Positions 22,141 to 38,864 of a stretch of 39,735 nt of DNA are shown piece by piece. Position 1 is the stretch's first letter. Each line of letters starts with the position of its first letter. This DNA is from Caldilineaceae bacterium (lineage in GTDB: Bacteria > Chloroflexota > Anaerolineae > Caldilineales > Caldilineaceae). The notes beneath the pieces are model-generated. The model was not told the DNA's origin. It made no database searches and saw only the letters and a list, made by a program, of their open reading frames with translations. Location of the stretch: contig JAGRCP010000046.1 in the NCBI GenBank assembly GCA_020433455.1, forward strand, positions 1 to 39,735. Direction: 5' to 3'. A program made the position numbers and the translations under genes.

Positions 22141-24795
22141 CTACTCTGCAAAGTCCGTATAGCGCACCTGGACCCAGCCCGGTATGACCAATGCATCGGC
22201 GGCGACCTGGACCCAGGCCCCGTCTTCGCTGACCTGAAGAACGCTCAGGATGGAGCCGTTGGCCAGATAGGCCAGGGCTTTGGCCTTTGTATCCGGCTCT
22301 TCATGCACGGTGAGGGGCCAGCCGTCCGTCTGTATGGAGGCCAAACCGATGGGTTCGGCCGTTGCTCCGGCGGTGTGGACATCCGTCTCGCCGCCCGCTC
22401 CTTCGCCCATCGACGCGTCTGCCACCGTCAGCATGAATTCACCGGCGCCGACATCGTCCAGGCTGCCCGCTTCCAACACCAGGGTCAGATCGTAGGGGAT
22501 TTCCAGTTCGGTAAAGCCCGCGTCCCGGATATCTTCACCCAGATCATCATTCGCCAAAAGCAGGTTGTCGTCCAAATCATACACGCGCAGAACCGTGTCC
22601 AGATCGTCGTTTGCGGCCGCGACGCGGATATTGATGACGTCTCCCTCCGCCACGTCCAGCGTATAGCGTACGCGCGTGTCCGCCGCAAGTTCGCCGCTTA
22701 CGCTGTCGCCGACCGCAACTGCGCCGCCGTCTGTAATCTCCGCGGTAGTCGCGCTGATCAGATAGTCGATTGCCGCGTCCAGAATGGGATCGCCCTCGCT
22801 GAAGAGGGTCTCCTCAGTCACGGGCACTTGTACGGTGGGCTGCACGCCTACGCCTTCAATGTGGATGTCGCCGTTCATGTCCACGGCGCGTCCCGCGGTG
22901 AAAGTGAAATATTCGCCGCCGGGCATGAGCACCTGATCAATGCTGCCGCCCAGACCGCCGGTAGGATATTGGCCCACAATCGCGGCACGATCGTTGAGGC
23001 TCATGTCGTAGGCGAAGAACTCGCACGCGCTGTTGCAATTGGGCCCCACCAACACGGCCACTTTGCCCCGATAGCGAAGGTCTTCCGCCGGCAGATAGAA
23101 GCGATCCACGGTGCGCTCGTCAAAGAAAAACTCGCCCAGGCTTTTGTCATAACGTCCGTTGTTGCCCAGTTCCAGGGGCTCATCGAAGAAATATGCGGCC
23201 ATCTGATCGGCCAGGAAACCGCTGCCGCCGCCGTTCTGGCGCATGTCGATGATGAGACCGGGCACGCCCGCCTGGTTGAGCGTACGGATCATGCGCTCCC
23301 ACAGCTGAATGCTCAGGAGGTCATTATCCGAGAAGCTGTAGATTTTGGCGTAGCCTAACCCCGCGTTGTCCAGCAGCAAGTATTCCACCGGCTGCTCAAA
23401 ACCGGTGAGACCGCTGTAAAAGGAGGAGAAGCTGAAGCTTTCGGTTTCGGGAACCGCGGCCAGGGTCGCGGTTACGGCGTCGTCCTCTCCCGGATTTTTA
23501 TACGTAATTTCGACTGTTGAATCCAGGGGGAAGCGAATGGCATAGCGAAGCTGCTGCAAGCGGCGCACGTGATCGGTGCTGAAGGGACCGGAATAGGCCA
23601 CGGCCGAGTCCACCGCCTCATCTATGGGCATGCCGTTGATGGCGATAATTTCCGCGCCCAGTTCGATGCCCTGCTCAGCGGCCGGACCATTGGGTAAGAT
23701 GAAGTTGGCAATAACCCGACCGTCATCCACGTCACGGATGGCCAGGCCCAGCCCGGCGGCCGTCGCGGACTGGAAATCTTCCATGATGTTGGGACCGCTC
23801 ACGTGGCCGTCGGGAATGCTCCAGGCGAAGTCGCGCAGCGCGCGGCGATAAGCCGTGAGGTCGTTGTTGGCCTCGGCCTCTTCAAAACGAGGAAGCAACT
23901 CGCTGCGCAAGGCCTCCCAGTCCATGCCCTTGTATTCGGTAAAGGCATATTCGTTGCTCAGCTGGTCAACTAGCGCGTTGAATGCCTCAGCGTAGCCCAG
24001 GTTCGAGTAATCGACCAGGGCGGAACCTTCGGGCTCAATGAGGTTCACCACCGGATTGCGCGAACGATCAAACGTAAAGGGATCGCTGTCCAGATTGACC
24101 AGCGTGTAGCCGGCGGGCACGGTCACGATGGGATCGTCGTCTGTAAAGAGGAGTCCATCCTCGCCAAAGCCGGCAGGAAAGCCCTGCTGATCATCGGGCG
24201 CGTAAATGAGGAACGTCCCGCCTACGATTTCCCGCCGGGTTTCCGCATCTTCGCTTACCCGGGTGGATGCATAGGCCGTGGACCAGCCGCCGCCGTAGAG
24301 GTCCCGCTCTTCCAGAAACGGATCGCCGAAGGTATTGGTCCAGTAGGCGGGCGCAAAGACCATGACGCCCGTCTCGTCCACGCCGTCGTGGTCCACGTCG
24401 CGCAGGCTGCCCTGGGGCTCAATCGGCAGGGCAATGGAATAGGCGAAGGGCGACGTGTAGAAGTCCGAGGTGATCTGCCCCAGGGTTTGGGATTCTACGG
24501 GCATAATGTAGCCTTCGTTGCGGTCTACAAAGCCGGTCTGATCTTCCAGGATGACCATGGGCGCGGCCACGCCCATGGTGAAGAAGGGCGAGGTATAGTT
24601 CACCTCGCCTGTGATGGTCACAGGACCGCCCTCGTCGTTGACGATTTCGGCAGGCGGCGCGTCCTCCTGGGCGTAGGCCGCCGGTGCCAGGAGCAGGCCG
24701 AAGGCCAACAGCAGAATCAACAAGTACGTTAATCGTCGCTCCGTGCTACTGGAATGCAGATACATATTGTTCTCCTTATAGAAAATGAAGATCAA
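22141..24795 (-). CDS. Secreted S41-family (C-terminal processing/tail-specific-like) peptidase with PDZ and C-terminal PPC domain
   Basis: A signal peptide is present. The S41 motifs are LIIDMRQNGGG and GPNCNSACEFFA. The PDZ domain contains GAEIIAINGMPIDEA. The C-terminal pre-peptidase PPC-like beta domain contains DTRVRYTLDVAEGDVINIRV. Confidence 0.7.
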   Translation of the reverse strand: MIFIFYKENNMYLHSSSTERRLTYLLILLLAFGLLLAPAAYAQEDAPPAEIVNDEGGPVTITGEVNYTSPFFTMGVAAPMVILEDQTGFVDRNEGYIMPVESQTLGQITSDFYTSPFAYSIALPIEPQGSLRDVDHDGVDETGVMVFAPAYWTNTFGDPFLEERDLYGGGWSTAYASTRVSEDAETRREIVGGTFLIYAPDDQQGFPAGFGEDGLLFTDDDPIVTVPAGYTLVNLDSDPFTFDRSRNPVVNLIEPEGSALVDYSNLGYAEAFNALVDQLSNEYAFTEYKGMDWEALRSELLPRFEEAEANNDLTAYRRALRDFAWSIPDGHVSGPNIMEDFQSATAAGLGLAIRDVDDGRVIANFILPNGPAAEQGIELGAEIIAINGMPIDEAVDSAVAYSGPFSTDHVRRLQQLRYAIRFPLDSTVEITYKNPGEDDAVTATLAAVPETESFSFSSFYSGLTGFEQPVEYLLLDNAGLGYAKIYSFSDNDLLSIQLWERMIRTLNQAGVPGLIIDMRQNGGGSGFLADQMAAYFFDEPLELGNNGRYDKSLGEFFFDERTVDRFYLPAEDLRYRGKVAVLVGPNCNSACEFFAYDMSLNDRAAIVGQYPTGGLGGSIDQVLMPGGEYFTFTAGRAVDMNGDIHIEGVGVQPTVQVPVTEETLFSEGDPILDAAIDYLISATTAEITDGGAVAVGDSVSGELAADTRVRYTLDVAEGDVINIRVAAANDDLDTVLRVYDLDDNLLLANDDLGEDIRDAGFTELEIPYDLTLVLEAGSLDDVGAGEFMLTVADASMGEGAGGETDVHTAGATAEPIGLASIQTDGWPLTVHEEPDTKAKALAYLANGSILSVLQVSEDGAWVQVAADALVIPGWVQVRYTDFAE

Positions 24796-28568: not shown

Positions 28569-28625
28569 CAGGCGTAACGCGCCTGCATTACTTCTGACAT
28601 CTGACTGTTGAAAGGAGCGTTATCC

Positions 28626-30011
28626 ATGGGAATTATCGGTGGCGTTGTAGCGGTTGTTCTTTTCTTTCTGGTAATCGGCCTGCTGCGGTCCATTATTCAC
28701 GTCTGTCCGTCGAACCAAATTCTGGTGATTACCGGCGGCACGGAGACCGAAGTGGACGGACGCAAATATGGCTTCCGCCTGCAGAAGGGCGGCTGGACGG
28801 CCATCGTGCCTTTCCTGCAGAACGCACGCTCCATTGACCTGACGATTACGCCCATCAACGTGCGCATTGACGGCGTCAACTCGGCCAACGGCATCAACGT
28901 GGGCGCGGATGCCACGGCCTGCGTCTGTATCGATGATGAGAATGAGACGCTGCTCTACAGCGCGGTCCAGCAGCTCCTGGGCAAATCGCGGGATCAGATT
29001 CAGGATCAGATTCAGCAGACCATGATTGGTAACTTCCGGGCCGCGCTCAACAAGACGACGCCCCTTCAGGCCATCGGTATGGTGGAGAGTGCAGAGGATG
29101 TGGATGATGTGGAATTGGCCGCCCTGGCGGGCAAAACCATCGGCACGACGCCCATGGATGCCTCCAACAGCAGCGCAGAACTGGTCGAGAAGATTAATGA
29201 TGCCGAAGGCGAGCGCGCAATCTTCCGCAGCGTACTGCTGGAAGATTGCCAGGAAGATTTGAGCAGCTTCGGCATTGACGTTGTTTCGGTCTCCCTCCAA
29301 CGGATTTGGGATACGTCCAACTATATCGCCAACCTGGCCAATAAGACCCTTTCACGCAAGCGCCAGGATGTGGAAGTCGAGGAGGCCCGCCTCCACGCCC
29401 GGGCCGACCGGGCCGAATCCGATGCCCAGCGCCGGATGCAGGTGGCCGAGAGTCAGGCCAACGAACGCATTGTGGCCGCACGTCAGGATGTGGAACTCTT
29501 CCGACGCCAGGCTGAGGCTGACATCAACCGGGCACGGCTGGAGGCGGACAGCGCCATTGCCGAGGCGGAAAGCCAGGGCCAGCGCAAGGTGGAGGAGTTG
29601 AAGGTGGAGTTGCAGCGGCTGCGCAACCAGTCGGAAGTGACGCTGGATGCCTCGGCCCGGCGCCGGGCCGCGGAAACCACGGCCGAGGGCGAAGGCGACG
29701 CCGTGGAGATCGTCCAGGCTGCCCACAACGATTTGCTCCAGCGCAGGGCCGAGCTGCTGCGGGAGAACGGCGATTTGGCGCGGCTGGTGCTCATCTACAA
29801 CAAGCTGCCCGAACTGTTTGCTGCCTATCAGCAGCACGCCCAATCCCAAAAGGTGGGGCAGCTGCTGGTGCTCAACGAAGAAGACGGTTTCAATCAGGCC
29901 GTCAACCGGGGCCCGGCCGCCATGGTCAGCTTCCTGCAGCAACTGGATGCGGGTTTCGGCGTCAACCTGCGCGATCTCCTGCGCAGCGATCAGCCGGCCC
30001 AGCAAGCGTAG
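28626..30011 (+). CDS. SPFH/Band-7 flotillin-like protein (FloT/YuaG-like)
   Basis: There is an N-terminal TM segment, an SPFH domain, and a C-terminal Ala/Glu/Arg/Gln-rich coiled coil. An AAAGGAG RBS precedes the ATG at 28626, and the TTG at 28608 is an alternative start. Confidence 0.8.
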   Translation: MGIIGGVVAVVLFFLVIGLLRSIIHVCPSNQILVITGGTETEVDGRKYGFRLQKGGWTAIVPFLQNARSIDLTITPINVRIDGVNSANGINVGADATACVCIDDENETLLYSAVQQLLGKSRDQIQDQIQQTMIGNFRAALNKTTPLQAIGMVESAEDVDDVELAALAGKTIGTTPMDASNSSAELVEKINDAEGERAIFRSVLLEDCQEDLSSFGIDVVSVSLQRIWDTSNYIANLANKTLSRKRQDVEVEEARLHARADRAESDAQRRMQVAESQANERIVAARQDVELFRRQAEADINRARLEADSAIAEAESQGQRKVEELKVELQRLRNQSEVTLDASARRRAAETTAEGEGDAVEIVQAAHNDLLQRRAELLRENGDLARLVLIYNKLPELFAAYQQHAQSQKVGQLLVLNEEDGFNQAVNRGPAAMVSFLQQLDAGFGVNLRDLLRSDQPAQQA

Positions 30012-30134: not shown

Positions 30135-30434
30135 CTACTGACCTGAAGCGCTGCGTGCATCATCAACCAGATTCTCGATCAGCCCTGTAAGGGTGTCTTC
30201 AGCGACATCCAACTGCGCCAGAGGAGAGGTCGCTGACTGCGCGTAGATCTGCCCGAGAACGGCCGTGCGCTGTTCTCGTTGCTGTTCCAGTTCTTCAAGT
30301 CGTTCAATCGGAATCAGGGCGATTGCCGGTTTTCCGGAACGTGAGACAATGTAGGTATCCTTGCCGTACATCACTTCGTTCATCACCTGTGCGAAGTTAA
30401 TGCGCACGTCTGTGGCGGAAATAGTTTTGTTCAT
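30135..30434 (-). CDS. Phd/YefM-family type II antitoxin (no adjacent toxin)
   Basis: The sequence MNKTISATDVRINFAQVMNEVMYGKDTYIVSRSGKPAIALIPIERLEELE is the Phd/YefM fold. The protein is 99 aa. Confidence 0.75.
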   Translation of the reverse strand: MNKTISATDVRINFAQVMNEVMYGKDTYIVSRSGKPAIALIPIERLEELEQQREQRTAVLGQIYAQSATSPLAQLDVAEDTLTGLIENLVDDARSASGQ

Positions 30435-30560
30435 AAATGGCGCCTTTTTGTAAATCAGGATACGCTGTCTACCAGTACATAAAATGTACATTTTGTATAA
30501 GTGTCCTACGTTAAAATTGTTGCGTAGTCAAGGGCGCGTCTGCCGCGGATCTAATTCAAT

Positions 30561-30945: not shown

Positions 30946-30989
30946 AAAAGCGGCCGTCATCTTGCTGATGAGACGACGGCCGCTTTTTG
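30946..30989. terminator. Bidirectional rho-independent terminator (AAAAAGCGGCCGTC...GACGGCCGCTTTTT)
   Basis: A GC-rich 9-12 bp stem is flanked by an A5 run on one side and a T5 run on the other. It lies immediately 3' of bcp on the minus strand. Confidence 0.8.
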
Positions 30990-31025: not shown

Positions 31026-31487
31026 TTATCCCAGCGCTTTGAGCGCGGCGGGCGCACTCTTTTTGGGACTGATCTTGTACTGTACATCGACCAGCTTCCC
31101 GGCTTCATCAATGACAAACTGGCTGCGGATAATGCCCATATATTTGCGGCCATACATGGATTTCTCGCCCCACACGCCATAGGCATCGGCGATGCTGTGA
31201 TCCTCATCCACCAGGAGGGTGAAGGGCAGATCGTACTTGCTGCGAAACTTTTCGTGGGAGGCCACGCCGTCGGGGCTGACGCCCAACACCACGGCGTTCT
31301 TCTCTTCAATTTCAGGATAGACATCGCGCAGGCCGCACGCCTGGGTGGTGCAACCGCTGGTATCATCTTTGGGATAGAAGTAAAGCACCACGCGTTTCCC
31401 CGCATAGTCGCTCAGGCGGACGGTATCGCCGCTGTCGGTGAGTGCGCTAAAGACCGGGGCCGATTGGCCGACTTCCAGGTTGGTCAT
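31026..31487 (-). CDS. bcp: Thiol peroxidase Bcp / peroxiredoxin Q
   Basis: The motif FYPKDDTSGCTTQAC carries the peroxidatic and resolving Cys, and the fold is thioredoxin-like. The protein is 153 aa from MTNLEVGQSAP. Confidence 0.85.
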   Translation of the reverse strand: MTNLEVGQSAPVFSALTDSGDTVRLSDYAGKRVVLYFYPKDDTSGCTTQACGLRDVYPEIEEKNAVVLGVSPDGVASHEKFRSKYDLPFTLLVDEDHSIADAYGVWGEKSMYGRKYMGIIRSQFVIDEAGKLVDVQYKISPKKSAPAALKALG

Positions 31488-31563
31488 GGATGAAGTTCCT
31501 TGCTGGTAGAGAATACAAATTGTCGACAAGCCATCAAATTCTACCTGGAAGTATACCAAACCT

Positions 31564-32370
31564 TTATGTAGGGCGGGAGACGGAACCGGCGGCCGCGCGC
31601 GGGGCGGTGCGCGCCTTGCTCCCTTTCGGCTTGGCTGAAAAAATGCGGTAATAGGTAGCAAAGAGTACGCTGGCGCCCGTGAACAAATATACGGCGTGCA
31701 TGGCAAAATGCCCGCTATCGCTGCCCTCCATGAGACCGTGGATCAGGGCCAGCACAAAGGCGACATAGGCCAGATAGTGAAAGGCGCGCCACGCCCGCCG
31801 TCCGATCCGCTTGCGCACGTAAAAGCTTGCAATCAGGGCCGTCGAGAGATAGAAGGAAACCGTCCCCAATCCAGTCCACACCGGCTTGTAGGATGCCGTA
31901 AACGGCAACAACAAATCGCGTAGCTGGAAGTGAATGTACTGGTCGCCCAGCAGGACCAGCGCATGCACCGCAGCGAAAATGACGGCCAGAAAGGGAAAGA
32001 ATTCATGCAGACCGAAGAGCAGCGCAGGCTTGAGGGCCCCTTTGGTCAGCTTGCCGCTCATGGCCACGCCCCAGAAGGTTGCAAACCAGAGCAGGAGATA
32101 AGCGACGATGCCGCCGGCACGGGCCATATACCAATAGGCGGGCGTGTCTTCCGTCAGGGGCAAAGCCATGATCGTTGCCTCTTGGCGCAACGTGTCTGTG
32201 ACCGCGGAACCGGCCGCAGTAAGAGCCGCGGGTTCGCGGAGCGCCATGGTCGGGAGCAGTGTTGCTGCGGTCAGTACGGCAATCGCGCCGATAAGACTGC
32301 CGACCAGCATAATCAGGATGTCGGGGCTGCGTGTGGAATGGGTTTGGGTAGTCATGAGCTGTTTCCTCAA
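31564..32370 (-). CDS. Ferric-reductase-like / MsrQ-like di-haem transmembrane protein
   Basis: It has six predicted TM helices. There are two His pairs at H-x13-H spacing (LHEFFPFLAVIFAAVHAL and FHYLAYVAFVLALIHGL), which is typical of bis-haem b ferric-reductase domains. Confidence 0.6.
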   Translation of the reverse strand: MRKQLMTTQTHSTRSPDILIMLVGSLIGAIAVLTAATLLPTMALREPAALTAAGSAVTDTLRQEATIMALPLTEDTPAYWYMARAGGIVAYLLLWFATFWGVAMSGKLTKGALKPALLFGLHEFFPFLAVIFAAVHALVLLGDQYIHFQLRDLLLPFTASYKPVWTGLGTVSFYLSTALIASFYVRKRIGRRAWRAFHYLAYVAFVLALIHGLMEGSDSGHFAMHAVYLFTGASVLFATYYRIFSAKPKGSKARTAPRAAAGSVSRPT

Positions 32371-32417
32371 TTGAATGTTATTCGATAAGCGTCGGGTTAA
32401 ATGTGCAGCCGTCGCCC

Positions 32418-32888
32418 TTATGAGCTGCCGCTCTTGGACGAGCCGCCGCTACTATTGCTGCCGCCGTTGTTATTGTTGCTGCTGCGGCTGGGCGGTGGCG
32501 GGACCGGCTTCTGGGGCAGAGCAGGAAGGGGCTCCAGCGTAGGCAGCGGCGCCAGGGCGGACATGCCGGGTAAGGCAAGGTCTACAGGAGCGGCCGCCTC
32601 CGCCTCGTCGAGTTGGTGCGTGATAAAGTCGGCCGTGTTTACGCGCAGGGTGGGGATGGACGCCGGCGTGGGCAGGGCGGCAATGTCCGGCAGCCCAGGC
32701 GTGACGGTCACTGCCTGCACCGGCTGCTCCGGGAGCGCCTCGGACTGGGCTCTGGCCGCCTCCAGGTGGCCGATCGCGCCCCAAACCCCGATCATCGACG
32801 TAATCGCCAGGGCGGTGGCCGTGGTTTTGGCCGGCAGAGAAAATTTACTGGGTCCTACAGGTTGTGGTTTCATATCAATCATCCTCAT
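32418..32888 (-). CDS. Membrane-anchored Pro/Ala-rich hypothetical protein with Asn/Gly/Ser-rich C-terminal tail
   Basis: It has a single N-terminal TM segment (ALAITSMIGVWGAIG), then a Pro-rich extracytoplasmic region and an NNNNGGSNSSGGSSKSGSS tail. It lies between the ApbE and MsrQ-like genes. Confidence 0.4.
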   Translation of the reverse strand: MRMIDMKPQPVGPSKFSLPAKTTATALAITSMIGVWGAIGHLEAARAQSEALPEQPVQAVTVTPGLPDIAALPTPASIPTLRVNTADFITHQLDEAEAAAPVDLALPGMSALAPLPTLEPLPALPQKPVPPPPSRSSNNNNGGSNSSGGSSKSGSS

Positions 32889-32960
32889 AATTTTCGGGCA
32901 AATTTTTGTGCAGCAGAATTAACCGTACGACGGAAACATGGCTTTCGTCGGGTTTCCGGT

Positions 32961-33903
32961 TTAGCACGACTGTACTGGGTGTAAATGACGTTCAGGCGGA
33001 GAGACGGTGAGCCGGGAAGCCAGCCCATCAGTAGCATAGAGCCTTCCGTCCTGAGCCTGAAGTAGAGCATCCACGCCCCGTTGCGTCAGGAAAGTCAGTC
33101 CGGCGCGGCTGCCCAGAATCAGTGCGCTCTTGGCATAGATCTCAGCGATGGTCGCCCGGGGCGCCAGAACAGTAACGGCGAGCAAGTCGGTATCCGCGGG
33201 TTGACCCGTGCGCGGGTCGATAATATGGTGGCGCATCCGCCCATCCCGCTGCCAGCGACGCTTGATCACCGTTGACGTGGCGACCGCACTGTGGCTGACC
33301 GTCACTGTGGCCACGCCGGCATCCGGATTCAATGCGTCTTCTATCTCGATCCGCCAGCCGTCCGTTGTCCCCGGCGTACCATAGGCATAGATATCCCCGC
33401 CGGCATTGAGCAGAAACGGCCCTTCCTTGTAGAGCAAATCGGCGCAGCGATCCACCGTCCACCCTTTCCCGATTCCGCCCAGATCCAGGCGGAGCTCGCA
33501 GGGGCGGCGCACCCGACAACCGTTGCGATCAAGCACCACATCCTTCATGGTAAAGTGACTGTGCGATGAGCCGTCCGCGCGCCAGCCTGCTACGGTTGGC
33601 GTCGTCTGGTCGGCGGCTATCTCTTCAAAGCTACGGTCGTAGCCCGCCCTTTCCAGACTCGGCAGGATGGTCGGATCAAAGAGACCTTGCGTACTGGAAG
33701 CCGCCCACTGCGCGGCTTCCAGTACGGCGAACAACTCGTGGCTCACGTGTTGTTCAGGCCGTTCGCTGCGGTTGAGCAGACTTAACTCGCTGTCCGCACG
33801 GAACCGGGAAAGGCGTTGCTCGCTGCGGGCGAAGGTCGTCTCCACATACCGGGCCAGGCTGGGGCGGGTTGAATACAGCAGGACGGAGACGTTGGTGTTC
33901 ATG
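32961..33903 (-). CDS. apbE: FAD:protein FMN transferase ApbE
   Basis: The motifs RFRADSELSLLN, LGGIGKGWTVD, NAGGDIYAYG and HHIIDPRTGQP are ApbE signatures. The likely start is MNTNVSV at 33903. The Met/Thr-rich N-terminal extension of the listed ORF is an out-of-frame read of the upstream gene's repeat. Confidence 0.85.
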
Positions 33904-33987
33904 GCTCGAAATTGGCGTTCCGTCCAGGCTGCTCCGCCGGCGGGGCTTACAGCCGCAAATCCCGCAGCGGTTGGTGCGCCCGGCATG

Positions 33988-34674
33988 TTAGTCGTCATCG
34001 TGGTCGCCGCCGTGGTCGTCATCATGATCGCCGCCGTGATCATCTCCATGATCATCTCCATGATCATCACCGTGTTCGTCATCGTGTTCGCCTGACTCAT
34101 GCTCTTCATGGTCGTCATCATCGTCTTGGTGGGCGCTGTTGTTATTATTGTCGCTGCCGCCCCCGTTGCCGCCGGGACGAGCTGCTTGGGCAGCCTGTTG
34201 TGCCGCCAGATCGTTGTAGGCCGTCTGAAGTGAAGCCAGGGTCGTTTCCAACTGCCGGCGCAGTTGCGTTTCGTTGCCTTGAAGCGCCGTTACTTGCTGG
34301 GTGTAGGCCTGGGCGTCCTGCTCCAACGCAGCCTGGGCGGTTTGGAGTTGGGCCTGCAGATTGGCGACGGCGCTCTCCCGGGCGGTGATTGCCGCCTGAT
34401 CGGCCTCTACGGCAGACTGGGCCGCTTCTATCTTTGCGCTATACTCAGCGTCCATATTCGCCAGTACTTGCTGCAACTCTGCAACGTTGGCCTGGAGCGC
34501 CTTTTCCTGCGCAAGCTGGGGCGCTTCAGCCTCGGTAGACGTGACAACCGCAACATCTGTTGTCTCCGGCTGGGCCGCGCTGCGGGCACGGGCCTGACCG
34601 GTCAGCACAACAAGCGGGCCGGCGATTAAAATAGTCAGTAAAGCGGATAGTAAAAAGGCGTGTGAGCGCTGCAT
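33988..34674 (-). CDS. Signal-anchored coiled-coil protein with Gly/Asn linker and His/Asp-rich C-terminal tail (putative periplasmic metal-binding, Spy/CpxP/ZraP-like)
   Basis: An N-terminal TM/signal segment is followed by about 150 aa of Gln/Ala/Leu-rich heptad helix carrying a VTALQ LTxxQ-like motif. The C-terminus is HQDDDDDHEEHESGEHDDEHGDDHGDDHGDDHGGDHDDDHGGDHDDD. An AAAGGAGA RBS precedes the ATG. Confidence 0.55.
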   Translation of the reverse strand: MQRSHAFLLSALLTILIAGPLVVLTGQARARSAAQPETTDVAVVTSTEAEAPQLAQEKALQANVAELQQVLANMDAEYSAKIEAAQSAVEADQAAITARESAVANLQAQLQTAQAALEQDAQAYTQQVTALQGNETQLRRQLETTLASLQTAYNDLAAQQAAQAARPGGNGGGSDNNNNSAHQDDDDDHEEHESGEHDDEHGDDHGDDHGDDHGGDHDDDHGGDHDDD

Positions 34675-34764
34675 GTCATTCTCCTTTATCTCTCGCCCGT
34701 CACGGGCGTTATGTTGGCGATGTCTCATCTCTTGCGGATTGATTTCCGGCCTGCGCCGAGTTTC

Positions 34765-35271
34765 TTACCGTCCCAGCACCTGGTTGACTTCATCCAGCCG
34801 GGCCTGCGCTTCATTGATCTGGGCTGTAATCATCTGGGCGCGGGCCGCGTACTCGGATTGGGCGCCTTGCAGCTGCTGTGCGTATTGGGCGCTGCGCCCG
34901 GCGCGTGCAGCCGTGAATTTTTCCAGCTGTGCGCTCAGCGCTTCCTCCTGCTGAATCAGGGCCGTCAGCTTTTCATCTGCTGCGTTCTGGGCATTGGTCA
35001 AGGCGGTCAATTGGTCGGCAAAGATTGCCTGACGTTCGTCAATGGTGCGCTGAAGTTCACCCGCCTGCTTTTGCAGAGTGAGCGCACGATCTACGTAAAA
35101 TGCCGTATCCGCTTCAGTGCTTGCTTCTGTATTCATTTCTGTACTTGCGTCCGTTGATGCTGATGCCGCTTCGGCCGTCAGGCCCATTGCGGGCGCGAAG
35201 CTAAAGAAAAGCACGGTTGCGGCCAGTGCGACCGTCATGGTGACAACGAAAATGACAACTGTACTCCGCAT
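34765..35271 (-). CDS. Signal-anchored coiled-coil protein, paralog of the downstream gene (Spy/CpxP-like size, 168 aa)
   Basis: An N-terminal hydrophobic segment and an acidic ASTDASTEMNTEASTEAD stretch are followed by a Gln/Ala/Leu-rich helix that contains LTNAQ (LTxxQ). Confidence 0.5.
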   Translation of the reverse strand: MRSTVVIFVVTMTVALAATVLFFSFAPAMGLTAEAASASTDASTEMNTEASTEADTAFYVDRALTLQKQAGELQRTIDERQAIFADQLTALTNAQNAADEKLTALIQQEEALSAQLEKFTAARAGRSAQYAQQLQGAQSEYAARAQMITAQINEAQARLDEVNQVLGR

Positions 35272-35536
35272 GGTTCAAGCCTCCTGTTTCACTGGGATCC
35301 GCTTGTTCTCCGGGCCACCTATATGGCCGGGGGCAGGAGCGGATGCTGGTCGAATCTTCCCGGCGAGCATTGCGCCCGCCGGCCCAGTGTAACAAAAATT
35401 GACCGGGCGGTGGTTAGGTCTGAATTATGCGTATGTTAAGCGTTTCTTTAATCCTGACAGGATTCTTGAGAGGGGTATCGAGCGGATCGTTGATGGGGAT
35501 AATTGCCGGGGAGCGTGCAGGGGGAAGCGCTGGAGG

Positions 35537-37135
35537 TTACCGGCTGGGGATAGGGAACGCTATGGTAAAGGCTGTGCCCTGCTTTTCGGTGCTGGAGACG
35601 CTGATACGGCCGCCGTTTTGCTCTACCAATGTTTTGACAATGGCGAGTCCGAGACCGGCCCCCGTACCCTCGCCCCTCTGCAGGCGGCTACGCGCCGGGT
35701 CAACGCGGTAGAAGTATTCGAAGATATGCGCCAAATCCTCGGGCGGAATTCCCGGGCCCGAGTCGCTGACGACAATTTTCGCAACGCCGGTCCGGCCCGC
35801 CGTCTGTTCGGTCTCGACGCGCAGGGTGACGCTCCCCCCGGGCGGGGTGTACTTGACCGCGTTATCCAGCAAATTGAGCACGACGGTTTCGACTTCATTG
35901 GCGCGTACGCTGAGCGGGGGCAGCAGTTCTTCAACGCTCACGGCAAAGGTGAGGCCGGCGTCCTTCATGCGCATGCGCATGGCGCGCGCCACGTCGAGAA
36001 GCATGGGGCGTATATCTGTCGGCGCTTCCGGCGGCGGCGGTTCGCGATTCTCGATCTTGCTCAGATCCAATAGGGTAGCAGCCAGCCGGCCCAGGCGATC
36101 CGCTTCGCTGTCAATCTCATGCAGATAGCGCTTGCTTAGCGCCGGGTCCTCGCCGTCCAGCGTCAGGAGGGCTTCACTGCGCAGCTTGATATTGGTCAGC
36201 GGCGTGCGCAGCTCATGGCTGGCATTGGCGATGAAGAGTCGTTGGCGGCGGATCATCTCCTGCAGCTCGCTCACCATGTAGTCGAAGGTCCGCGCCAGCG
36301 AGCCAATCTCATCGATTGAGTCAATATCTGCGCTCTGGGACAGATCGCCGGAAGCCACAGCCAATGCGGTTTCCTGCAGGCGTTGGATGGGGCGCACCAA
36401 ACGGCGCGCCAGGAAGATGCCCAGCACCGTGGCCAGGGCCAGCGCCGCCGCGCCGGCCAGTAAGAGGGTCAGCGCGAGCCCCCGAATGGGGGCAAGTACG
36501 TCGGACATGGGTTGAGCCATGCGCACAACGCCGAGCAGATTGTCGCCGATTTGCACCGGTGCAGCAGCAAACATATAGCGCACATCGCCCGCGGGATCGG
36601 TTCGAATATCGTGCTGTTCGACAAGCTGGGTTGCGGCCTGAAATTCGGGCGTGAGCAGTTGGTTGCCGATGGCCGCGGCCGAACCGCGGCTGTCTACGAT
36701 TGCATCGCCGCGCACGTCGAGGATTGTGACCCAGAGGCCGTCCTGTTGAGCGTAGCGGTTGGCCAAATGTTGCAGGCCATTTGTGCCCGGCGCGTTCGCC
36801 GTAAGGCCCTGGTCGCCCGCGTCGTCTTCTTCTCCGGCCGAATCTTCCCCGTCGTCGCTCTCTTTTCCGTCATGACTTTCTCGCCGCTCGTATTCTTCCA
36901 GCTCGCTGGAATATCCGCTGAGCGGATCTTCCAGGGCGTTCGCGGCCAACAAGGCTTTTACCTCCAGATCGTGTTCGGCCTGGTCGATCTGGACGCTGTA
37001 GACAGCGTTAATCACCAGCGCCATGAGCAGGCTCAGCACAATTAGAACGAGCAGGCCATAGCTGGCGATCAACCGAAACTGGAGACGCTGACGCCAGGGG
37101 ATGCGGGATGGGACGGGCAGAGCCTGTTTATTCAT
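35537..37135 (-). CDS. Sensor histidine kinase (two TM, acidic periplasmic sensor, HAMP, HisKA, HATPase_c)
   Basis: The H-box is HELRTPLTNI, the N-box is LLDNAVKYT, and the G-box is GTGAGLGLAIVKTLVEQNGG. The periplasmic loop contains ESHDGKESDDGEDSAGEEDDAGD. Confidence 0.88.
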   Translation of the reverse strand: MNKQALPVPSRIPWRQRLQFRLIASYGLLVLIVLSLLMALVINAVYSVQIDQAEHDLEVKALLAANALEDPLSGYSSELEEYERRESHDGKESDDGEDSAGEEDDAGDQGLTANAPGTNGLQHLANRYAQQDGLWVTILDVRGDAIVDSRGSAAAIGNQLLTPEFQAATQLVEQHDIRTDPAGDVRYMFAAAPVQIGDNLLGVVRMAQPMSDVLAPIRGLALTLLLAGAAALALATVLGIFLARRLVRPIQRLQETALAVASGDLSQSADIDSIDEIGSLARTFDYMVSELQEMIRRQRLFIANASHELRTPLTNIKLRSEALLTLDGEDPALSKRYLHEIDSEADRLGRLAATLLDLSKIENREPPPPEAPTDIRPMLLDVARAMRMRMKDAGLTFAVSVEELLPPLSVRANEVETVVLNLLDNAVKYTPPGGSVTLRVETEQTAGRTGVAKIVVSDSGPGIPPEDLAHIFEYFYRVDPARSRLQRGEGTGAGLGLAIVKTLVEQNGGRISVSSTEKQGTAFTIAFPIPSR

Positions 37136-37150
37136 GATGTCGTCTATTTG

Positions 37151-37894
37151 TTATTTGTGATCGGCGATCTCATCCGGGGCGACGAGACGATATCCCACGC
37201 CCCGGATCGTGAGCAGCAATTCCGGCTTGCTCGGATCCCGCTCCAGCTTTGCGCGCAGCCAGCGCATGTGTACATCCAGCGTACGCGGATCGCCGATCCA
37301 CTCCGCGCCCCACACCTGATCCACCAAATCGCCCCGCTTCACCGCGGCGCCCTGCGCATCGAGCAGCGCTATCAACAAGCTGTATTCCCGCTGCGAAAGA
37401 TGCACCGGTTCATCATCCACCGCCACCTGGTAGCGCGCCCGATTGACGCTTACGTGGCTCAACTGCACGACGGCGGATTCCTCCGGGGGGGCAGTCTCGG
37501 CCGGGGGCGTTTGCTGCGCGCTGTCCATGGCCACCCGCCGCAATACGGCGCGAATGCGGGCGATGAGTTCCCGTGCGCTGAAGGGCTTGGTGAGATAATC
37601 ATCCGCACCCAACTCCAGGCCCAGAATGCGGTCCATTTCTTCTCCCCGGGCAGTCAGCATGATGATGGGAACGCCACTCTCGGCGCGCAACTCGCGGCAG
37701 ACTTCCCAGCCCTGCTTTTTGGGCATCATGATATCCAGCAGGACAACGTCCGGGTCTATCGCCCGCGCCTGGGCCAGCGCATCTTCGCCGTCGACTGCGA
37801 CGTGTACGACAAAGCCTTCGCGGCGCAGTTGCAATGCCAGGGGATCGATGATCATCGGATCGTCATCCGCCAGCAAGATAGTCTCATCGGCCAT
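37151..37894 (-). CDS. OmpR/PhoB-family response regulator
   Basis: The receiver domain has ILLADDDP and the phospho-accepting Asp in VVLLDIMMPK. The C-terminal winged helix ends in GVGYRL. Confidence 0.9.
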   Translation of the reverse strand: MADETILLADDDPMIIDPLALQLRREGFVVHVAVDGEDALAQARAIDPDVVLLDIMMPKKQGWEVCRELRAESGVPIIMLTARGEEMDRILGLELGADDYLTKPFSARELIARIRAVLRRVAMDSAQQTPPAETAPPEESAVVQLSHVSVNRARYQVAVDDEPVHLSQREYSLLIALLDAQGAAVKRGDLVDQVWGAEWIGDPRTLDVHMRWLRAKLERDPSKPELLLTIRGVGYRLVAPDEIADHK

Positions 37895-38058
37895 ATATCA
37901 TCCGTTTCACTTCATTTCGTTGAACGTATCGGGCTCTTTTTGACCACGTCCATTCATTTGCGTCATGCCTGACGGGGATTGTTCCTGTCGCCCCAAGCTG
38001 CCCCGTATAGCATGCCCGAATCCTTTCGTCCTGTGGTCAAGTCCAGGCTAGGAGTCGG

Positions 38059-38108
38059 TTAAGCCTATGTTAAGAACGCTGGATCCAGCGTTCTTAACAT
38101 AGGCTTAA
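38059..38108. repeat. 50-bp perfect palindrome (25-bp arms, no spacer, centred on GGATCC)
   Basis: TTAAGCCTATGTTAAGAACGCTGGA|TCCAGCGTTCTTAACATAGGCTTAA was checked base by base. It lies in the divergent intergenic region between the response-regulator start and the downstream membrane-protein gene. Confidence 0.9.
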
Positions 38109-38351
38109 TGCCTTAATGAGCAATGTTTAACCACGCTCGTCACAAATGGGCGTATACTATCAACCATGCACGGCTTTCATCGGCTTTGGGATGTGCTGTG
38201 TGCAATGCTGTGTACGGCGCTGTGCAGGGATGACATCGTACAACTACCGGCATCTCTGCACAAGCCGCTTAAACTATACGCAGGCAGGCGTTTCCTGCAC
38301 CAAATTCCGGACAACCATGGGTTGTCAAGCTTTAGTTGGAGGATTGTTGAC

Positions 38352-38864
38352 GTGAAAAATTTGAAGCAATTGGTTACGCGAAATTACTACCCGTTGATGT
38401 ATCTCTTAATCGCCGGGAGCTTCCTGGGGCTCACGGCCGAGTTGGTGCTGACGGAGCATTGGGACGGCATTCAGCTCGTTGGTCTATTGGCCAGCATTAT
38501 TGGCCTTGTTCTGGCTGTCGTTGCTCTGTTCGCCGCGCCGCGTATGCGTCAGGCGCTGGCTGTGCTGTTTGTCGTCCTGAGTATCTCGGGAATTATCGGC
38601 ACGATTGAGCACAACGAAGCGCGGAGCGGCGAAGAGGCTTCCGCGCCGGTTATTGTCGCCGCAACAGCCGGCTCCAGCCGGGAACTTCCCGCCGCGCAGC
38701 AGCAGGAAGGCGAAGAGAATGAAGCGCGTGAAGGTCGCGGAGAACGGGGCGAAAGAGAGGGTGAAGCCGCACCGCCCCTCGCCCCCATGAGCCTGGCCGG
38801 TATGTCGATCATTGCCGCCGTGACCCTCATTGCAGACGACCGTAACCGCCAAAAGGCCGGATAA
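38352..38864 (+). CDS. Hypothetical membrane protein with Glu/Arg-rich cytoplasmic segment
   Basis: A GGAGGA RBS lies 8 nt upstream of the GTG at 38352. There are three or four TM helices and a charged EGEENEAREGRGERGEREGE segment. The listed ORF opens at 38166. Confidence 0.45.
   Translation: MKNLKQLVTRNYYPLMYLLIAGSFLGLTAELVLTEHWDGIQLVGLLASIIGLVLAVVALFAAPRMRQALAVLFVVLSISGIIGTIEHNEARSGEEASAPVIVAATAGSSRELPAAQQQEGEENEAREGRGERGEREGEAAPPLAPMSLAGMSIIAAVTLIADDRNRQKAG

Follow-up and report, generated by a model that had tools for sequence, protein, structure and literature searches.

The window analysed here is an entire 39,735-bp contig from a metagenome-assembled genome (MAG) of a Caldilineaceae bacterium (Chloroflexota). 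It contains a run of eight minus-strand open reading frames (ORFs), from a response regulator gene starting at 37894 to bcp, which ends at 31026. As judged from sequence comparisons, the first seven of them would on balance constitute an operon, controlled by a two-component system (TCS), for a Chloroflexota-specific transmembrane electron-transfer module. The seven products are a response regulator (RR), a histidine kinase (HK), two coiled-coil proteins (CC1 and CC2), an ApbE-type flavin transferase, a small membrane protein that we call X, and an MsrQ-like protein; we infer from these the physiological function of the module, the signal that it senses and the flavinylation of X. An earlier note, made from the sequence of the window alone, had described the whole run as an envelope metal/redox-stress module with Spy/ZraP-like proteins. 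Of this, the functional module and its metal/redox flavour stand, whereas the assignment to Spy/ZraP and the membership of Bcp have to be dropped. The eight ORFs are all present where that note had placed them:

37151..37894, minus strand: RR of the OmpR/PhoB type, 247 amino acids (aa); Pfam Response_reg 3e-30, Trans_reg_C 1e-23
35537..37135, minus strand: HK, 532 aa; Pfam HAMP-HisKA-HATPase_c, two transmembrane (TM) helices
34765..35271, minus strand: CC1, 168 aa; signal/anchor helix plus an Ala/Gln-rich helix, no acidic tail
33988..34674, minus strand: CC2, 228 aa (246 aa from an alternative start at 34728); TM helix, helix of ~115 residues, tail ending in DDD
32961..33986, minus strand: ApbE, FAD (flavin adenine dinucleotide):protein FMN (flavin mononucleotide) transferase; Pfam ApbE (PF02424) 1e-57, 196 bits against a cut-off of 25.6
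32418..32873, minus strand: X, 151 aa; basic N-terminus, one TM helix (GGW), Pro-rich stalk; alignment A2
31564..32355, minus strand: predicted MsrQ-like cytochrome b, 263 aa, six TM helices, Ferric_reduct-like; alignment A1
31026..31487, minus strand: Bcp/PrxQ thiol peroxidase, 153 aa (Cys46, Cys51); Pfam AhpC-TSA 2e-41

The gaps noticed there are likewise real, and in gene order the intergenic distances are 15, 265 and 90 bp, an overlap or about 1 nt between CC2 and apbE, and then 87, 62 and 76 bp.

The seven-gene core is conserved across Chloroflexota

Alignment A1 of MsrQ-like homologues retrieved 80 loci, one per species, all of them from Chloroflexota (Caldilineaceae, Promineifilaceae, Anaerolineae and Ardenticatenaceae); a further locus on a 4.09-Mb contig makes 81, and individual loci are cited below by their L numbers. 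Presence was counted in the 68 species-level loci whose sequence extends 4.5 kb or more upstream. In 61 of these, apbE directly precedes the MsrQ-like gene and shares its strand; at least one CC gene occurs in 59 and X, or a variant of it (X'), also in 59; ApbE, CC and X or X' are found all together in 51. The CC1 gene is conserved directly upstream of CC2. Closer relatives share the CC1-CC2-ApbE-X-MsrQ order of the window, and a relative with 62% identity, on the 4.09-Mb contig, has the order of all seven genes; a distant group has CC-X'-ApbE-MsrQ. Relatives of the RR (55–89% identity) flank the cluster in about 20 loci, and relatives of the HK show 44–79% identity. The related RR/HK pairs share the strand of the cluster and either precede it, as they do in the window, or follow directly after the MsrQ-like gene.

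This gene arrangement, which recurs in dozens of species, is far beyond chance. A fortuitous juxtaposition of unrelated genes describes Bcp only; for the seven-gene core it is refuted by the conservation of order and strand across Chloroflexota families and by a shared operator (see below), leaving it a negligible probability. The claim of the earlier note that the cluster is a functional unit is therefore upheld for the RR, HK, CC, ApbE, X and MsrQ-like genes, and the synteny that it had put forward, RR-HK-CC-CC-ApbE-X-MsrQ-Bcp, is conserved across Chloroflexota for the first seven genes and fails at Bcp.

In five loci (L026, L028, L035, L041 and L042) X and the MsrQ-like gene occur as a pair with neither ApbE nor CC within several kb, and X still ends in SGGS in these stand-alone pairs. 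Because of such pairs, we consider X and the MsrQ-like protein to be more tightly linked than any other part of the system. What look like ApbE-X fusions in L004, L027 and L044 were judged to be assembly frameshifts. Additionally, a membrane-anchored Haem_bd (PF14376) protein with a CFDCH (CxxCH) haem c motif adjoins the cluster in 18–21 related loci (for example L031:8304-8786, L075:10591-11079, L058, L063, L067 and L068), and many of these proteins end in Asp/Glu/His-rich tails resembling that of CC2. No Haem_bd homologue was found in the window.

Predicted regulator boxes link the two-component system to the operon

The RR has its phospho-acceptor, as read from the sequence, at Asp54 (LLD54IMMP). 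In loci with a related TCS, the regions upstream of CC1 have in common four tandem 11-bp units of the form CTTAACnnnnn, and the following features of the window are concerned:

35408..35452, minus strand: predicted regulator box upstream of CC1, ATTAAAGAAACG CTTAACATACG CATAATTCAGA CCTAACCACCG
38031..38074, minus strand: predicted RR box upstream of RR-HK, four 11-bp units, CTTAACATAGG CTTAACCGACT CCTAGCCTGGA CTTGACCACAG
38061..38106, no strand: perfect palindrome of 46 bp, formed by the two back-to-back first units of divergent regulator boxes
38166..38864, plus strand: gene for a membrane protein with about four TM helices and a Glu-rich loop; box on the plus strand at 38093-38136

In 19 loci the CTTAAC box precedes CC1, and every one of them encodes a related TCS on the same strand. 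A position weight matrix (PWM) trained on 13 sites recovered seven sites that it had not been trained on, equivalent in position and scoring 19.9–45.0 bits; only three other hits in the loci exceeded 16 bits, one overlapping the box of L006 (17.8) and two in L075 (16.5 and 16.8). In the window, a -10-like TACACT (35386-35391) lies 3' of the CC1-upstream box, and this region, inside the 265-bp gap that follows the kinase gene, is the predicted promoter of the operon. A riboswitch in this same gap was considered and rejected, since no Rfam family, the FMN riboswitch included, was found anywhere in the window.

The box upstream of RR-HK scored 15.4 with the PWM, against a maximum of 12.9 across 20 shuffles, and CTTAAC-N5-CTTAAC tandem units also occur 78–170 bp 5' of the RR gene in L027, L037, L040, L043, L084 and L001, which implies autoregulation. 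Overall, CTTAAC-N5-CTTAAY occurs three times in the window with up to one mismatch, against 0.09 expected: once 5' of CC1 and twice, one per strand, in the intergenic region upstream of the RR gene. There the box sets meeting at the palindrome (whole region, 38031-38136) face RR-HK on one side and the divergent four-TM gene on the other. The true start of this gene is probably downstream of 38166, and its product matches Pfam HlyIII only below threshold. Its homologues adjoin the TCS in L027 (64% identity) and L037 (42%), and CTTAAC repeats face the gene in the window as well as in both of these loci; it is probably a third member of the regulon.

Direct repeats with a period of ~11 bp fit the layout expected for an autoregulated OmpR/PhoB-type regulator, and we predict that these are its binding sites. 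The regulatory link between the RR and the operon, proposed in the earlier note, is supported by this conserved putative operator, which would tie the regulator to the operon. In other lineages the regulator is an ECF sigma factor or a different TCS. An extracytoplasmic function (ECF) sigma factor, recognized by Pfam, replaces the TCS in L004, L005, L009, L011, L017 and L021, at ~3.7–3.9 kb upstream of the MsrQ-like gene, and ECF-type loci have a promoter-like CGTTACTTTT-N16-GTCACTAAT upstream of CC1; L015 and L019 carry this motif too. A third type of regulator, with another shared motif, was found in L016, L022, L029, L030, L031 and L039. Regulators have thus been exchanged, each with its own motif upstream of CC1, and the structural genes therefore keep a dedicated regulator of the envelope type.

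A predicted two-haem membrane protein and its putative partner X

Members of the MsrQ-like family match Pfam Ferric_reduct at E ≤ 0.01 in 16 of 26 cases (best, 5e-7). All 26 sequences have two invariant pairs of His, H122/H136 and H198/H211 in the numbering of a 268-aa ORF, spaced 14 and 13 residues, which map to the third and fifth of six helices (TM3 and TM5) in an AF2 model with a predicted local distance difference test score (pLDDT) of 79; the best-ranking folds for this model in Foldseek are those of SpNOX, STEAP2 and STEAP1. The protein would carry two b-type haems on these His pairs.

X has no Pfam or NCBIfam family. A database search with the single, low-complexity sequence gave just five hits; a profile search gave 97 homologues, none of them with a Pfam family, and those that bear a name are 'hypothetical protein' except for two. 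Following the TM helix, the stalk contains conserved PTPWPTI, APLPTLAPLP and poly-Pro segments, and then a Gly/Ser/Asn linker that ends in SGGSSKSGSS-COOH. By the positive-inside rule, the N-terminus is inside and the tail outside in 35 of 35 sequences. The last residue is Ser in all 44 loci compared, with Gly at -2 in 41 and Ser or Thr at -4 in 44; likewise, 92 of the 97 database homologues end in [ST]x[GSA]S, 59 of them in SGGS.

ApbE is predicted to be cytoplasmic

The best match of ApbE in the PDB is Ftp of T. pallidum (4xdt, 9e-27). ApbE proteins have a conserved Ser, His and Asp (S241, H257 and D285 in V. cholerae), and an aromatic residue on the isoalloxazine marks the FAD-binding class (PMC12052999, PMC4767422). 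In the family studied here, at least 90% of sequences have ATS and HHIIDP. The Ser and the His are retained, most members have Glu in place of the Asp, and a Phe aligns with the residue at the aromatic isoalloxazine position of Ftp_Tp (residue 55).

Gene callers start apbE at 34049, inside the region for the CC2 tail, although the likely start is the ATG at 33986, 1 nt after the CC2 stop codon. Between 33986 and 34121, the +1 frame of the His/Asp codon repeat of CC2 is open, rich in ATG and reads as a Met/Ile/Thr-rich peptide, and because of this gene callers over-extend ApbE by 20–45 residues. ApbE or X' ORFs of many related loci are over-extended in the same way. We considered this Met/Ile/Thr-rich extension as a signal anchor and discarded it as a frame artefact, because homologues that are not preceded by CC2 start just before FRAMN. 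Indeed, about 30 homologous ApbE ORFs start no more than ~20 aa before FRAMN/G and show no hydrophobic stretch. A lipoprotein or secretion signal at the N-terminus is usual in ApbE proteins, though not universal; the present family lacks a signal peptide and would belong to the rarer cytosolic ApbEs, of which examples exist (PMC12052999).

Possible flavinylation of X

ApbE recognizes the motif D-x-x-[S/T]-G-A-[S/T], of which seven residues suffice and which works best as a tag at a protein terminus; replacing the Asp has a minor effect, and a change of the Gly or the Ala roughly halves flavinylation (PMC12052999). Moreover, in FMN_red proteins a C-terminal extension that lacks structure is a validated site of flavinylation (PMC11334425). 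Among the eight proteins of the cluster, strings of the type [ST]G[AGS][ST] occur only twice in the tail of X and once, at a site that is not conserved, in TM6 of the MsrQ-like protein, and no Pfam match to an FMN_bind domain was found in any of them.

We therefore considered, as a tentative proposal that we rate as rather improbable, that the signal-less, cytoplasmic ApbE puts FMN on the last residue of X (S-G-G-S-COOH) and that the tail is then exported. X would be a natural 'flavin tag' and define a new class of ApbE substrate: a flexible arm of ~100 residues would hold the covalently bound flavin beside the outer haem and work as a swinging-arm electron shuttle through the wall, with no need for a folded FMN-binding domain or FAD export. 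Metal, or another acceptor, would be displayed on the His/Asp-tailed CC stalks, with the kinase responding to the same cue.

Several of our observations weigh against this proposal or against the electron-transfer reading as a whole. All sequences compared derive from MAGs. The MsrQ-like protein of the window scores 23.6 bits with Pfam Ferric_reduct (PF01794), below the cut-off of 28, and the top Foldseek hits of its model, the bacterial NADPH oxidase SpNOX, STEAP2 and STEAP1, are weak (E about 1e-2, TM-scores 0.35–0.40). Clustering of the neighbourhoods of the 81 loci revealed no conserved electron-donor domain, terminal reductase or metal transporter in the cluster; MsrP, a donor dehydrogenase and a metal transporter were accordingly rejected as conserved neighbours. 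The pairs of X and MsrQ-like genes described above do without ApbE or CC. ApbE is predicted to be cytoplasmic, whereas the tail of X is predicted to be outside the membrane; speculatively, flavinylation before export of the unfolded tail would reconcile this conflict of topology. The motif in X has Gly or Ser in place of the canonical Ala and lacks the leading Asp. Finally, the X' proteins of the distant group (L046-L080, e.g. L048:8346-8669), encoded between CC and ApbE, end in P-[VI]-[AT]-R-[TS]-R-S-S-[RKQ]-COOH, unlike the ApbE motif, and no ApbE-like motif is conserved in any cluster protein of that group. The basic tail of X' contrasts with the acidic CC tail encoded just upstream.

With these observations, it is possible, if on the unlikely side, that the module is real and X is not flavinylated. 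ApbE would then modify another target, either a cytoplasmic flavoprotein encoded elsewhere or the T-G-x-S in TM6 of the MsrQ-like protein, or it would only bind or hydrolyse FAD, and X would be a structural subunit or a wall-spanning tether. The conflict of topology, the deviating tail of X' and the pairs without an adjacent ApbE all speak for this alternative, and so does T231-G232 of TM6, which is invariant and lies within TGAS in the window. However, 7 of 26 members have a hydrophobic residue at the fourth position of this TM6 motif, that of the acceptor, and the motif is part of a TM helix, so that flavinylation there is unlikely; no further cluster protein offers a motif. The stop codon, besides, is kept exactly after S-x-G-S in 92 of 97 homologues of X, which calls for a function specific to the terminus. 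The basic N-terminus of X (K-F-T-G-x-A-K) was also examined as a flavinylation site and rejected, as it has no conserved acceptor Ser or Thr.

Coiled-coil proteins and kinase share acidic, His-containing segments

The earlier note had taken CC1 and CC2 for Spy/ZraP-like periplasmic proteins with LTxxQ-like motifs. In such a reading, the cluster would be an envelope stress system of the ZraSR-ZraP or CpxAR-CpxP type, in which the CC proteins are metal-binding chaperones and the redox genes are accessory. The predicted control of the CC genes by a TCS, the conserved His/Asp/Glu tail of CC2 and the acidic sensor of the kinase agree with it, and ZraP likewise has Gly/His-rich ends. Nevertheless, neither protein has a Pfam or NCBIfam family, and Pfam LTXXQ and Metal_resist gave zero matches to either at E ≤ 0.1. 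Profile comparisons with CpxP, Spy and ZraP reached a probability of 0.1–0.6% in hhalign; as controls, CpxP-Spy reached 98.5% and ZraP-Spy and ZraP-CpxP failed, so the comparison with ZraP is less sensitive. The LTxxQ-like motifs come down to a single, non-conserved LTNAQ in CC1, and any LTxxQ is absent from 27 of 35 CC1 and 26 of 35 CC2 homologues (about 75%). An AF2 model of CC2, made from the single sequence, has helices at residues 3-30 and 50-164, the latter with pLDDT above 95, and a disordered tail; CC2 thus appears as a membrane-anchored single helix of 115 residues, with no soluble helical-hairpin cradle, and Foldseek found 0 matches for the model in the PDB. Homology of CC1 and CC2 to Spy, CpxP or ZraP was rejected on the basis of Pfam, hhalign, motif conservation and fold. 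Furthermore, the tightest linkage in the cluster is that of X with the MsrQ-like gene, not that of CC with the TCS, and we regard a ZraP- or CpxP-type system as quite unlikely. CC1 and CC2 are paralogous to each other, their families aligning at 99.4% in hhalign, and a REAxYQxQ motif is conserved in the CC proteins.

The His/Asp-rich tail noticed earlier is present in CC2 and is conserved. Its last 60 residues include 22 Asp, 11 His and 5 Glu, and a tail of the form (His/Asp/Glu)n-DD(D)-COOH is kept in most or nearly all loci, the distant group included (48 of 68 by a scripted criterion). The claim of a kinase with an acidic sensor stood as well. The HK, with its H-box His at position 307 (SHELRTPL), has an outer domain (residues 46-212, 167 aa) with 33 Asp plus Glu against 10 Lys plus Arg and an isoelectric point of 4.1, and 15 of 16 aligned kinases share AEHDLEV..ANALEDPLSGY..EFE.YE followed by a variable insert rich in Asp, Glu and His. 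Segments rich in these three residues thus occur repeatedly: in the sensor of the kinase, at the end of CC2 and in the tails of the Haem_bd proteins. Given the conservation of the CC2 tail and the similar insert in the kinase sensor, it is plausible, from sequence, that the tail binds cations or metals; the metal link of the earlier note survives on the tail and the sensor, not on homology to ZraP. Chloroflexota are generally regarded as single-membrane bacteria, and the label 'periplasmic' for these proteins is for this reason doubtful.

Bcp and other neighbours lie outside the module

Bcp is well defined by sequence (NCBIfam PRK09437, 155.5 bits against a cut-off of 140; GC46TTQAC51) and has the peroxidatic Cys expected in a T-x-x-C context, but its membership in the module was not borne out. 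With tblastn, none of the 81 other loci gave a bcp hit closer than 10 kb to the MsrQ-like gene; only three contigs of the same organism did, and bcp is absent even in L027, a relative with 75% identity. Bcp was thus rejected as part of the conserved module. It is a lineage-specific neighbour that may be co-transcribed by read-through from the operon, and it may have a promoter of its own besides. The 76-bp gap upstream of it (31488-31563) contains a weak sigma-70-like TTGATG-N16-TATTCT (8/12, below the threshold of the scanner) and no terminator.

These data also bear on a role in the repair of, or defence against, oxidative damage, with the MsrQ-like protein feeding an MsrP-type reductase and working with Bcp. 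The weak similarity to NCBIfam MsrQ (3e-4) and the position of bcp immediately downstream, with no intervening terminator, would suit such a role. It is, though, very improbable in view of the lack of MsrP, or of another molybdoenzyme partner, in the conserved neighbourhood of the 81 loci, of the absence of Bcp from all related loci, and of Bcp being an enzyme of the cytoplasmic type, without a signal peptide.

The strong terminator reported after bcp was confirmed:

30946..30989, minus strand: intrinsic terminator with an 18-bp stem, A-tract upstream and U-tract downstream; -30.8 kcal/mol, z = -8.3

The hairpin is followed by UUUUUAUAU. Just past it there is an ORF for a Phd/YefM-type antitoxin (30135-30491, minus strand); in the gene calls of L081, a contig of the same organism, an ORF of 32 aa comes after the antitoxin ORF. 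Farther along, 28608-30011 (plus strand) encodes an SPFH/Band-7 protein of 467 aa, a long helical part of which is rich in Gln, Ala and Glu, and 22141-24795 (minus strand) an 884-aa S41 C-terminal-processing peptidase with PDZ and SH3 domains. The peptidase gene is not syntenic with the module, and we claim no link between it and the conserved C-terminus of X. The remaining genes of the window are unrelated, for housekeeping and sugar utilisation.

Relation to known systems

We found no paper that describes the present module. The earlier note considered the combination not to be a described operon type; this is correct for the variant, which differs in several defining respects, and incorrect for the class, since ApbE with an MsrQ-like protein was described in 2021 (PMC8238504). 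These are the 'MsrQ-like' flavinylation-associated clusters (Meheust et al. 2021, eLife, PMC8238504; Huang et al. 2024, PMC11334425), which also combine apbE with a six-TM, two-haem protein of the PF01794 type and are presumed to serve extracytosolic electron transfer. However, the clusters described are mainly actinobacterial, include a protein with an FMN-binding domain ([S/T]GA[S/T]) and often have an NAD-binding domain on the MsrQ-like protein, and they were collected only where ApbE or FMN_bind had a signal peptide (PMC8238504). In the present module, by contrast, ApbE has no signal peptide, FMN_bind and NAD domains are missing and the MsrQ-like protein does not reach the Pfam cut-off; X, the coiled-coil/His-tail proteins and a dedicated TCS come in addition.

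With ZraPSR and CpxPAR of Escherichia coli, the module shares a TCS controlling a helical envelope protein with a metal-binding, His-containing end, but there is no relationship in sequence, motif or fold, the CC proteins are membrane-anchored, and the RR is of the OmpR/PhoB type, whereas ZraR is a sigma-54 activator. The flavin-based extracellular electron transfer system of Listeria monocytogenes (FmnB/PplA; PMC8238504, PMC9973259) is likewise from a monoderm and has an ApbE-type enzyme and a membrane-tethered flavin carrier on the outside. Yet FmnB is an extracytosolic lipoprotein that needs FAD export, PplA has folded FMN-binding domains, and the membrane step is carried out by Ndh2/quinone/EetAB, not by a two-haem FRD protein. 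X resembles the engineered 'flavin-tag' and the flavinylation sites at the C-terminus of FMN_red proteins (PMC12052999; PMC11334425) in its short ApbE motif, unstructured C-terminus and terminal acceptor Ser/Thr. The canonical motif is D-x-x-[S/T]-G-A-[S/T], whereas X, which lacks the Asp and has no flavin-binding fold next to the site, reads [N/H/K]-[R/K]-S-G-G-S (in the window, S-G-S-S). Finally, six TM helices with bis-His pairs 13–14 residues apart on TM3 and TM5 are common to the MsrQ-like protein, to MsrPQ of E. coli and to the NOX and STEAP proteins. Unlike these, the protein described here has no MsrP partner and no dehydrogenase domain, and it has an N-terminal TM helix of its own, an outer helix and a conserved outer segment, MGLPL..AYWYxARxGG.

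Proposed model and implications

In the model that we favour, the kinase, through its acidic His/Asp/Glu-rich outer domain, would sense the same cue that is bound by the CC2 tail, and the OmpR/PhoB-type regulator would act at three promoters, those of RR-HK, of the divergent gene and of CC1-CC2-apbE-X-msrQ-like. The MsrQ-like bis-haem protein would pass electrons, taken from the quinol pool or on the cytoplasmic side, to the outer face, with X as its single-pass partner and the proline-rich stalk of X outside the membrane. CC1 and CC2 would form a membrane-anchored stalk ~17 nm long, with the His/Asp/Glu tail of CC2 binding cations. In a more speculative step, the signal-less ApbE would attach FMN to the C-terminal Ser of X, which would then be the flavin carrier in place of the FMN-binding domain of canonical systems.

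The Chloroflexota families that host the module are abundant in activated sludge, soils and sediments, and little is known of their redox biology outside the cytoplasm. Dozens of species have kept the module, yet it is probably overlooked by the published flavinylation censuses, because its ApbE is signal-less, its cytochrome falls below the Pfam cut-off and it has no FMN-binding domain; these censuses may thus under-count whole clades. The recurring His/Asp/Glu segments point to a cation signal amenable to screening, and the clean pairing of regulator box and operon makes for a directly testable regulon; in sister lineages an ECF sigma factor takes the place of this pairing. Should flavinylation of X occur, X would provide the first case of a natural flavin tag at the end of an unstructured stalk, and a case in which the flavin is attached before export.

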